From NCBI GenBank assembly GCA_944358775.1, contig CALVRU010000004.1:1-59664 (forward strand): DNA of 59,664 nt. The letters run 5' to 3'. A program made the position numbers and the translations under genes. Below are positions 13,820 to 13,954 of this stretch, piece after piece. The notes under the pieces are model-generated. The model had not been told where the DNA came from. It worked only from the letters and a program-made list of their open reading frames with translations, and did no database searches. The DNA is from an uncultured Bacilli bacterium. GTDB taxonomy: Bacteria > Bacillota_I > Bacilli_A > RF39 > UBA660. Position 1 is the first letter of the stretch, and every line of letters begins with the position of its first letter.

Positions 13820-13850
13820 TGATATAATAACATTGGAAGAATAAAGGAGG
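13820..13850 (+). promoter_or_regulatory. Extended -10 promoter and strong RBS for a small ORF
   Basis: TG-a-TATAAT at 13820-13828; AAAGGAGG at 13843-13850. Confidence 0.65.
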
Positions 13851-13859
13851 GGAAAATTT

Positions 13860-13892
13860 ATGTGGATTTTAAGATTCCTTTTAGGTCGTTAA
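13860..13892 (+). CDS. Candidate 10-aa peptide MWILRFLLGR
   Basis: ATG 9 nt after AAAGGAGG; has its own promoter and terminator; below the ORF-track size cut-off. Confidence 0.5.
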   Translation: MWILRFLLGR

Positions 13893-13919
13893 TCACATAT
13901 TGACTTGCATTCAGTAAGT

Positions 13920-13954
13920 AAAGAAGATGACAATTTTATGTCTATCTTCTTTTT
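13920..13954 (+). terminator. Intrinsic terminator after the small ORF
   Basis: AAAGAAGATGAC-aattttat-GTC(T)ATCTTCTTTT, a stem with a 1-nt bulge followed by Ts. Confidence 0.65.

Follow-up and report, generated by a model that had tools for sequence, protein, structure and literature searches.

A ten-codon gene beside a CPBP-type membrane-protein gene in uncultured gut Firmicutes very probably encodes a selected micro-peptide

Open reading frames (ORFs) of about ten codons are ignored by gene callers and by small-protein surveys, and a human-microbiome screen for antimicrobial small ORFs (smORFs) synthesised peptides of 13–44 residues (PMC12821620). The locus described here lies in contig CALVRU010000004.1 of assembly GCA_944358775.1, from an uncultured Bacilli bacterium (RF39; UBA660); the whole stretch of 59,664 nt that was analysed is referred to as the window. 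Between rpmA and a gene for a CPBP/CAAX (Rce1-like, 'Abi') membrane protein, an earlier note made from the sequence had placed a complete stand-alone mini-gene for the peptide MWILRFLLGR, with promoter, Shine–Dalgarno site and terminator of its own. We are highly confident that this mini-gene is a real, selected, peptide-coding gene. The peptide belongs to a family of 9–12-residue Trp/Phe/Arg peptides that is apparently undescribed: literature searches for the exact peptide strings, for CPBP with a small peptide, for a leader peptide with MATE and for a smORF with MATE returned no description of it, and the concatenated peptides (joined artificially, since at least 20 residues are needed) had no match in Pfam or NCBIfam.

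Ten conspecific contigs were 99 % identical over the interval, the sole change in the ORF being synonymous (TTC>TTT), and exact copies of the CPBP protein were present on chicken-gut and other metagenome contigs. In a sister lineage (L140, CPBP protein 89 % identical) the ORF reads MWFLRFLLGR, with one synonymous and one conservative change; promoter, Shine–Dalgarno site, ORF and both hairpins were kept, with many indels around the rpmA terminator. The nearest genomes by Prp (42–57 % identity) were metagenome-assembled genomes labelled uncultured Bacilli, Tenericutes, Mollicutes, 'Candidatus Ventrenecus' and 'Ca. Onthousia'. A blastn search of positions 13769–14024 (256 nt) against 80 relatives gave chance matches only and, as the DNA could not be aligned at this distance, homologues were sought by synteny and by peptide patterns. 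Relatives with a homologous CPBP gene after rpmA had an ORF of 9–12 codons in the same gap, arranged as a purine-rich Shine–Dalgarno site, the ORF and a GC-rich hairpin with a T-run, after which a TGnTAtAAT promoter serves the CPBP gene separately. A Shine–Dalgarno-like purine run at similar spacing preceded every homologue, a TGnTAnnnT element lay 31–44 nt upstream of the ATG in most relatives, and the terminator of every CPBP-adjacent homologue started ~10–30 nt after the stop codon (~70 nt in L034). Promoter, Shine–Dalgarno site, ORF and terminator were thereby conserved in more than 20 divergent relatives.

The predicted peptides of relatives found through Prp were MWAWFRRFF, MWKWLSRFF, MWAWLKRFL, MWWIFRIFF/Y, MLWIFRIFF, MLRWLLFWL, MLAWLLRWF, MWSWIWKIFF and MMGILAWFRRFF, and those of closer relatives MWFFRWILGR, MGFWRWIFGF, MLAWLKRVIGGF and MWKWLKRWF; one contig ending inside the locus held the ORF end ...CGR*. 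The family core is M-W-x-W-[L/F/I]-x-[R/K]-[F/W/I]-[F/L], with W-phi-x-[R/K]-phi-phi as the common part, while the variant of the window lineage has hydrophobic residues around the central Arg and a C-terminus extended by Gly-Arg or Gly-Phe. Acidic residues were absent, and each peptide contained 1–3 Trp and 1–3 Arg/Lys, the rest being hydrophobic. Length was 9–12 residues in all ~40 distinct copies. Identity was ~33 % in the flanks and 66 % in the ORF, with codon position 3 least conserved, figures that are descriptive because the set was chosen by peptide pattern.

A mini-ORF was found upstream of 22 of the 25 CPBP genes that were located without reference to the peptide (through queries with Prp, P213 or CPBP; the L093 locus was judged by eye). 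No mini-ORF was seen at L028 and L029, which form one species pair, or at the divergent CPBP gene of L056; in L028, as in other relatives, the CPBP gene is preceded by an element of the TGnTAtAAT type. Where the CPBP gene lies away from rpmA (L012, L015, L016, L018, L050 and L080) the mini-ORF was still found 110–200 nt upstream, indicating that it travels with the CPBP gene and not with rpmA. This supports the functional link to the CAAX/Abi neighbour that the earlier note had suggested. The gene for the surface protein P213 (206–235 residues) follows 31 of 48 CPBP genes examined and is missing from some mini-ORF loci (e.g. the MWRWLTRFF group), so the tighter pair is peptide and CPBP. In two loci with MWKWFFRWF (L104 and L109) a 182-residue membrane-anchored ORF lies between mini-gene and CPBP gene, placing the peptide gene ~1.1 kb upstream of its usual partner.

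Public metagenome contigs were scanned with the pattern GGAGG-N5-10-ATG-N6-TGG-NTN-NNN-AGA-TNN-TTN-TAR. Family members made up 29 of the 38 loci found, and 27 of these had Trp at position 2, which was free in the pattern. Most (24 of 29) lay directly upstream of the window-type CPBP family; the remaining five, in a MatE or adenosine monophosphate (AMP)-dependent ligase context, were on higher-GC contigs of spore-forming Firmicutes (SpoVAD present). Further MatE-context loci were found by following MatE homologues, and several carry tandem copies. Four different peptides (MWRWLLRWF, MWRWLRRFW, MWAWLKRFL and MWKWLLRWL) are encoded in tandem between an AMP-ligase gene and MatE in L137; L113 has three copies and L120 two to three upstream of MatE. 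Two copies precede MatE and a PlsC-type acyltransferase in L138, and in L143 a pair of 10-mers comes before MatE, a hexapeptide-repeat transferase and an acyltransferase. Single copies occur in L119, L124, L136 and L142. Each MatE-context copy has its own AAGGAGG, and a stem-loop without a T-run lies between the last copy and MatE.

The pattern of variation in these arrays is codon-wise. In L137 the spacers of units 2–4 are near-identical and codons 2–9 differ at ~26 % of sites; 19 of the ORF differences are non-synonymous and two synonymous, all at positions 3, 6, 8 and 9. No single array varies at W2, W4, L5 or R7, and when all nonamers of the MatE context are compared, the changes at positions 5 and 7 are conservative ones only. 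One peptide, MWAWLRRFF, occurs both upstream of CPBP and P213 in the AT-rich L125 and in the MatE/AMP-ligase arrays of the spore-formers L120 and L138, which points to horizontal transfer or strong convergence. Genes for a hexapeptide-repeat acetyltransferase, a PlsC-type acyltransferase and an AMP-dependent long-chain acyl ligase recur in the MatE clusters (L137 320–4308, L138 3837–6246, L143 590–3636, L120 and L112) and could serve peptide acylation, yielding a ribosomal lipopeptide, or lipid remodelling for self-protection. Carriage by phages was considered and rejected, a scan of viral contigs having given only a chance match with an in-frame stop.

Start, stop, frame and length were kept in more than 40 distinct copies whose DNA is otherwise unalignable, and no frameshifted copy was found. 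Judged from these comparisons, the locus is conserved as a peptide and not as DNA. The preservation of frame, length, start, stop and ribosome-binding site without other similarity, together with the codon-wise variation in arrays, indicates that the peptide is the selected product and makes a non-coding or accidental origin very unlikely. On sequence evidence, this family of 9–12-codon ORFs bears clear signs of purifying and diversifying selection across deeply divergent, mostly uncultured gut Firmicutes. None of the observations that the earlier note had named as counting against its proposal (an ORF or ribosome-binding site not conserved or frameshifted in relatives, or a stub of a longer gene) was made.

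The signals described for the window are present, with small corrections of coordinates (Table 1). The mini-ORF is not the stub of a longer frame, because an in-frame TAA at 13842–13844 shuts the frame on the upstream side. A composite of the signals (TATAAT-N10-25-AGGAGG-N5-10-ATG) occurs twice in the 59.7-kb window compared with 0.01 expected from shuffles, the other match being the start of a real gene at 54398. Co-occurrence of the mini-gene signals exceeds chance expectation, and the claim that they are unlikely to have arisen by accident gains further from the linkage to CPBP genes; the comparison with relatives is the strongest evidence that the mini-gene is real.

Table 1. Positions of the mini-gene signals and neighbouring features in the window
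Feature	Position	Strand	Details
Extended -10 element TGATATAAT	13820-13828	+	Perfect extended -10, TG present
Mini-gene promoter	13800-13828	+	-35-like TTTAAA at 13800-13805, 17-nt spacer, then TGATATAAT; 10/12 match
Shine–Dalgarno site AAAGGAGG	13843-13850	+	9-nt spacer to ATG
Mini-ORF	13860-13892	+	ATG + 9 codons (10 sense codons), MWILRFLLGR; TAA at 13890-13892
Small hairpin ACTTGC-ATTCA-GTAAGT	13903-13919	+	RNA folding; between stop codon and terminator; also in L140
Mini-gene terminator	13920-13954	+	RNA folding; 13-bp stem 13920-13932 / 13939-13952, T-run to 13954
rpmA	13430-13717	+	ORF
Intrinsic terminator of rplU-prp-rpmA	13740-13768	+	GAAAACTGTTC...GAACAGTTTTTTC; upstream boundary of the mini-gene
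Separate promoter of the CPBP-like gene	13971-13999	+	TTGAAC-17-TATACT, TG-extended
CPBP/CAAX (Rce1-like, 'Abi') membrane protein	14025-14666	+	PF02517, 35.1 bits against a cut-off of 22.4
P213 surface protein	14690-15331	+	Signal/transmembrane helix, beta-sandwich, NNP[KQ]S.N motif, C-terminal transmembrane helix, KK

Contigs from two chicken-gut metatranscriptome runs cover 13788–13995 and 13826–13976. The interval was found in these two runs only, at a coverage too shallow to define a transcript, and transcription, for which the earlier note had proposed RNA sequencing, is documented only weakly.

The transcript of the mini-gene is predicted to fold into a 5' hairpin that includes the Shine–Dalgarno site, a middle hairpin and the terminator (z = -2.1). 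An sRNA-like fold of this kind would also be expected if the locus encoded a non-coding small RNA (sRNA) with an incidental ORF, for example a riboregulator of rplU-rpmA or of efflux genes resembling peTrpL/rnTrpL. The position next to rplU-rpmA is in keeping with such a role, since in Sinorhizobium this operon is targeted by peTrpL/rnTrpL, a Trp-rich leader peptide and its paired sRNA (bioRxiv 10.1101/606483). However, the retention of an intact reading frame and the codon-wise array variation are not those of an incidental ORF, the element follows the CPBP gene and not rpmA, and predicted duplexes with the rplU-rpmA or CPBP mRNAs were no better than those of shuffled sequence. An Rfam scan of 13700–14030 found nothing near a gathering score (best fstAT, 17.2 bits against 72, E = 8.8). 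We regard an sRNA origin as very improbable.

Within the predicted 5' hairpin, the Shine–Dalgarno purines at 13843–13849 pair with 13875–13881, in the pyrimidine-rich Phe/Leu codons of the 3' part of the ORF. The probability that the Shine–Dalgarno site is unpaired was 0.01 in L012 and L013, and mini-ORFs used TTC and TTT in a ratio of 41:28 despite AT-rich genomes. This sequestration was not universal among the mini-genes folded. The pairing could reflect translational self-control, stabilisation of the mRNA or coincidence.

A short ORF followed by a hairpin, upstream of a same-strand membrane-protein or efflux gene, could also be a cis-acting leader peptide, whose translation (through the supply of Trp, Phe or Arg, or through a ribosome stalled by a drug or metabolite) controls the downstream gene, as in the erm, cat, bmrCD and msrD leaders and the trp-type attenuators. 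The mini-ORFs share with known leader peptides (ErmCL, MsrDL, BmrB, TrpL/peTrpL and B. subtilis rtpLP) a very short reading frame with a Shine–Dalgarno site, in some cases with many Trp or hydrophobic codons, placed ahead of a gene for resistance or efflux. They are rich in Trp codons; their hydrophobic, aromatic look recalls ErmCL, which contains ..IFSIFVI.., and MsrDL (MYLIFM); and in some members the hairpin begins ~10–13 nt past the stop codon, where a terminating ribosome could reach it. One transcript without an intervening promoter, as an attenuator requires, is found only in the MatE context, where the genes are co-transcribed with just a hairpin between ORF and MatE. In the window and its CPBP-context relatives, by contrast, the mini-gene is closed by a strong terminator and the CPBP gene starts from a separate promoter. 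This terminator usually begins 10–30 nt after the stop, leaving no space for an antiterminator. Masking of the ORF or of the stop region, a crude minimum-free-energy test of ribosome occupancy, left 18/19 and 19/19 terminator pairs in the window and an intact terminator in most relatives, and the attenuator model was rejected because constrained folding gave no consistent switch. The MatE-context hairpins lack T-runs and the Shine–Dalgarno site of MatE is not sequestered. Diversified tandem copies would make no sense for a sensor, and it is the whole peptide that is conserved, not just a C-terminal arrest motif, the C-terminus in the window differing from that of the nonapeptides. Control in cis is, in our estimate, quite improbable.

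The partner protein in the window matches no solved structure at sequence level with its profile, and its best named NCBIfam match is MroQ (30 bits against a cut-off of 270); PF02517 is also annotated on its homologues. A homologue search returned five proteins only, because the family evolves fast: identity is 19–46 % across alignment A3 and 20–25 % to the other CPBP clade, compared with 38–60 % for P213 and 68–91 % for L27. The motifs EExxxR, FxxxH and HxxxN/D were placed at their presumed positions. In the window clade EE and HxxxN are kept and the motif-2 His is Tyr, with the Arg of EExxxR lost in the window and in L091. The other clade retains EExxxR but has Asn for the His of motif 2 and Lys for that of motif 3. 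Such CPBP-like proteins may bind rather than cleave. Peptides next to HxxxN-type proteins (window, L140, L091, L141, L095 and L093) have Gly-containing ends (..LGR, ..CGR, ..FGF and ..IGGF) and those next to KxxxN-type proteins end at an aromatic pair. This would fit CAAX-like C-terminal trimming, but amounts to one phylogenetic split and is weak evidence.

These properties bear on the main rival explanation, an intracellular accessory or regulatory micro-peptide that sits at the cytoplasmic membrane interface and modulates the adjacent CPBP-like protein or MatE, in the manner of AcrZ, MgtS or KdpF in much shorter form. Such a peptide gene would strictly adjoin the gene of a multi-pass membrane protein, as is seen in both contexts. 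The fast evolution of CPBP relative to P213 and L27 is as expected of a co-evolving pair, and peptide type tracks CPBP clade, the Gly-extended peptides going with HxxxN proteins. Synteny with core genes, and a CPBP context in which no exporter is adjacent, also suit an intracellular partner. Against this, two to four different variants before a single MatE do not fit a 1:1 subunit, and a strong promoter and terminator of its own imply that the peptide is made in large stoichiometric excess. Near-identical peptides are found with two unrelated membrane folds (MWAWLRRFF in L125 and in L120/L138), and nine residues are too short to span a bilayer, unlike known accessory small proteins. An accessory role is therefore rather unlikely in our view, though to be taken seriously.

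The reading that we tentatively favour, with a confidence falling slightly short of even, is that the mini-gene encodes an exported, membrane-active effector. A near-consensus promoter, a strong Shine–Dalgarno site and a dedicated terminator would supply peptide in large excess over the partner protein, a layout like that of structural genes for secreted peptides. The mini-ORF has no leader or signal sequence, and 9–12 codons leave no room for a leader. Since methionine aminopeptidase is blocked by Trp or Leu at position 2, the (formyl-)Met should stay on the product. The peptide would form ~2.5 turns of an amphipathic, cationic, aromatic helix and partition into the membrane interface, and the partner (CPBP/Abi-like here, MatE in spore-forming Firmicutes) would export the peptide, protect the producer or possibly trim the C-terminus. 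CPBP/'Abi' proteins are classical bacteriocin immunity proteins, a role said to have been described by Kjos and colleagues in 2010, and MATE transporters export cationic aromatic compounds. The whole would amount to a leaderless bacteriocin or phenol-soluble modulin (PSM) in miniature, paired with an Abi-type immunity protein or a dedicated exporter; the outcome could be killing, signalling or a host-directed effect. Retention of formyl-Met, membrane activity, export and immunity are functions that we infer. The peptide pheromone or small membrane-active toxin of the earlier note thus stays conjectural, strengthened by the diversified tandem arrays and the MatE exporter partners.

By analogy, the locus would work most like PSM loci (the psm-alpha operon) or those of leaderless class II bacteriocins with Abi immunity. 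Shared features are the lack of a leader with formyl-Met presumably retained, an amphipathic, cationic and aromatic peptide, tandem small ORFs with their own Shine–Dalgarno sites, and a membrane-protein or exporter gene alongside. The known systems have an ABC exporter, whereas the partner here is MatE or CPBP and the module is syntenic with core genes. Among leaderless peptides encoded beside an immunity or export gene, the novelty would lie in the unprecedented size and in the kind of partner.

Several points weigh against an exported effector. The peptides have 9–12 residues where PSMs and leaderless bacteriocins have ~20–55, which is too short for a membrane-spanning or long amphipathic helix, and we know of no leaderless bacteriocin or PSM that is not far longer. 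Synteny of the module with core genes (rplU-prp-rpmA ... obg) persists over deep divergence, which fits a housekeeping role better than an accessory bacteriocin, and the neighbourhood in the CPBP context offers no exporter, receptor or modifying enzyme. The full catalytic set (EExxxR, FxxxH and HxxxN/D) is found in no CPBP protein of the clade, and processing of the peptide by CPBP is doubtful because the set is incomplete. Given the Shine–Dalgarno pairing in many members, conservation of the C-terminal Phe/Leu residues could in part be an RNA constraint. The RNA support consists of Logan contigs of depth ~3 that carry no strand information, one of the runs being of ambiguous type; contig ends disagree with the predicted transcription start and terminator, and the contigs may stem from DNA carry-over or read-through. 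Translation of the mini-ORF, and with it the existence of the peptide, is itself a prediction.

A related explanation is a diffusible signal, that is, a directly translated pheromone sensed by bacteria or a formyl-peptide for host formyl-peptide receptors. The peptides have the size and hydrophobicity of mature Gram-positive pheromones, the diversified arrays resemble pherotype variation, and every source environment is a host gut. Among named CPBP models the closest is MroQ, which reportedly matures the AgrD pheromone. The pheromone XIP (GLDWWSL) likewise contains a double Trp (PMC8092268). However, a receptor gene (RRNPP/Rgg regulator or histidine kinase) is conserved beside neither context, the MroQ match is far under its cut-off, and known pheromones are cut from longer precursors. 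Among known signalling systems, MroQ-AgrD likewise ties a CPBP-family membrane protein to a small peptide, but AgrD has 46 residues and needs AgrB, and the catalytic motifs of the CPBP proteins here are incomplete. In the RRNPP, Rgg-SHP and ComRS systems a precursor of 17–45 residues is cut to the peptide, whereas the ORF here is already of mature size and has no conserved regulator. We consider a signalling role quite unlikely.

Other systems share single features with the locus. The microcin C precursor MccA (seven residues) is a directly translated functional ORF of fewer than ten codons with its own ribosome-binding site beside export and immunity genes, and proves that genes of this size exist; it is polar and needs adenylation by MccB, whereas the peptides here consist of Trp, Phe and Arg, and no ThiF/E1-like or MccB-type adenylyltransferase was present in the Pfam lists of neighbouring genes. 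Short Trp/Arg-rich antimicrobial peptides such as indolicidin, the lactoferricin core RRWQWR and the combinatorial Ac-RRWWRF-NH2 belong to the same composition and size class, and the family peptides would satisfy the minimal pharmacophore of at least two bulky aromatics and about two cationic charges; the known examples are host-derived fragments or synthetic, and the likeness is one of composition only. The tryglysin (wgk) operon, with a small Trp-containing antimicrobial peptide and the MATE transporter WgkD (NCBIfam NF052396; PMC8092268), shows that a MATE gene can share an operon with a small Trp peptide. Tryglysin differs in that a precursor of 21 residues is cut and a radical-SAM enzyme carries out cyclisation, with control by Rgg/SHP; genes for these were not seen here, and MatE scored 39.8 bits against a cut-off of 510 with the WgkD model. 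The defining enzymes or regulators of microcin C, RaS-RiPP and RRNPP systems are thus all missing from the locus. Type I (Fst-like) toxins have a transmembrane helix of at least 20 residues and an antisense RNA, in contrast to the ten residues encoded here, and a promoter scan found no convergent promoter across the mini-gene.

A wider reading joins these elements. The mini-genes, single or in tandem, would represent an unrecognised class of leaderless nona- to dodecapeptides of gut Firmicutes, (f)M-W-x-W-L-x-R-F-F and variants. Only microcin C would be a smaller ribosomal effector peptide, and MatE or CPBP proteins would export or otherwise handle the products. The AMP-dependent ligase and acyltransferases of the MatE clusters could acylate the peptides to give ribosomal lipopeptides, the targets could be competitors' membranes or host formyl-peptide receptors, and in the window lineage CPBP could take off the Gly-Arg or Gly-Phe at the C-terminus, in which case a bacterial CAAX-type protease would have the peptide as a natural substrate. 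With all parts taken together this is possible, though somewhat unlikely.

The family combines fixed partnerships with two kinds of membrane protein and conserved expression signals. If the peptides are active, they would extend the lower size limit of directly translated bacterial effectors, and the product of the mini-gene is probably one of the smallest bacterial effector peptides of this kind. They would also offer a candidate natural ligand for bacterial CPBP/Abi proteins, whose substrates are largely unknown, and could be synthesised chemically at once for tests as antimicrobials, signals or ligands of formyl-peptide receptors. The combination of a Shine–Dalgarno site, a peptide pattern and a neighbouring gene provides a search recipe for ultra-short genes.

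Around the mini-gene, a direct repeat, TTGTCAAA-N3/4-TGTCAAA, directly follows the terminator in eight loci (L016, L018, L038, L040, L043, L050, L062 and L080) and is not found in the window. It lies ~40–65 nt past the mini-ORF stop and 50–70 nt upstream of the CPBP -10 element, is conserved amid unconserved DNA and may be an operator for some regulator. PADLOC gave no match for the CPBP protein, P213 or a 252-residue neighbour, and an anti-phage 'Abi' reading was rejected on this ground. P213 has 166 homologues, all annotated 'hypothetical'; it is lineage-restricted and has no Pfam domain. Invariant motifs in its beta-sandwich are YSW, HHG.LP, LYLYYYN and DHCS.Y.LT, and its C-terminus (VVNDAVNNP[K/Q]S.N, a hydrophobic helix and KK) presumably resembles a sortase-B-type sorting signal (NPQTN/NPKTG). 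An AlphaFold2 model of P213 (predicted local distance difference test, pLDDT, 82) had no fold match in the PDB better than E = 0.012.

Elsewhere in the window no MatE gene was found. The presence of murB, ftsA and ftsZ indicates that the source organism is walled. Upstream of rplU, a match to L21_leader (RF00559) at 12713–12784 (+) scored 35 bits against a gathering score of 36 (E = 7e-5) and is probably a genuine r-protein leader of the rplU-prp-rpmA operon. On the conspecific contig L003 (5118–6403), obg was called as two ORFs (380 and 48 residues), reflecting a frameshift or an assembly error. At 54398–56181 (+) lie three tandem genes with type-IV-pilin/pseudopilin-like N-termini, GFTL[V/I]ELLAVIVILG, those of the last two being near-identical.

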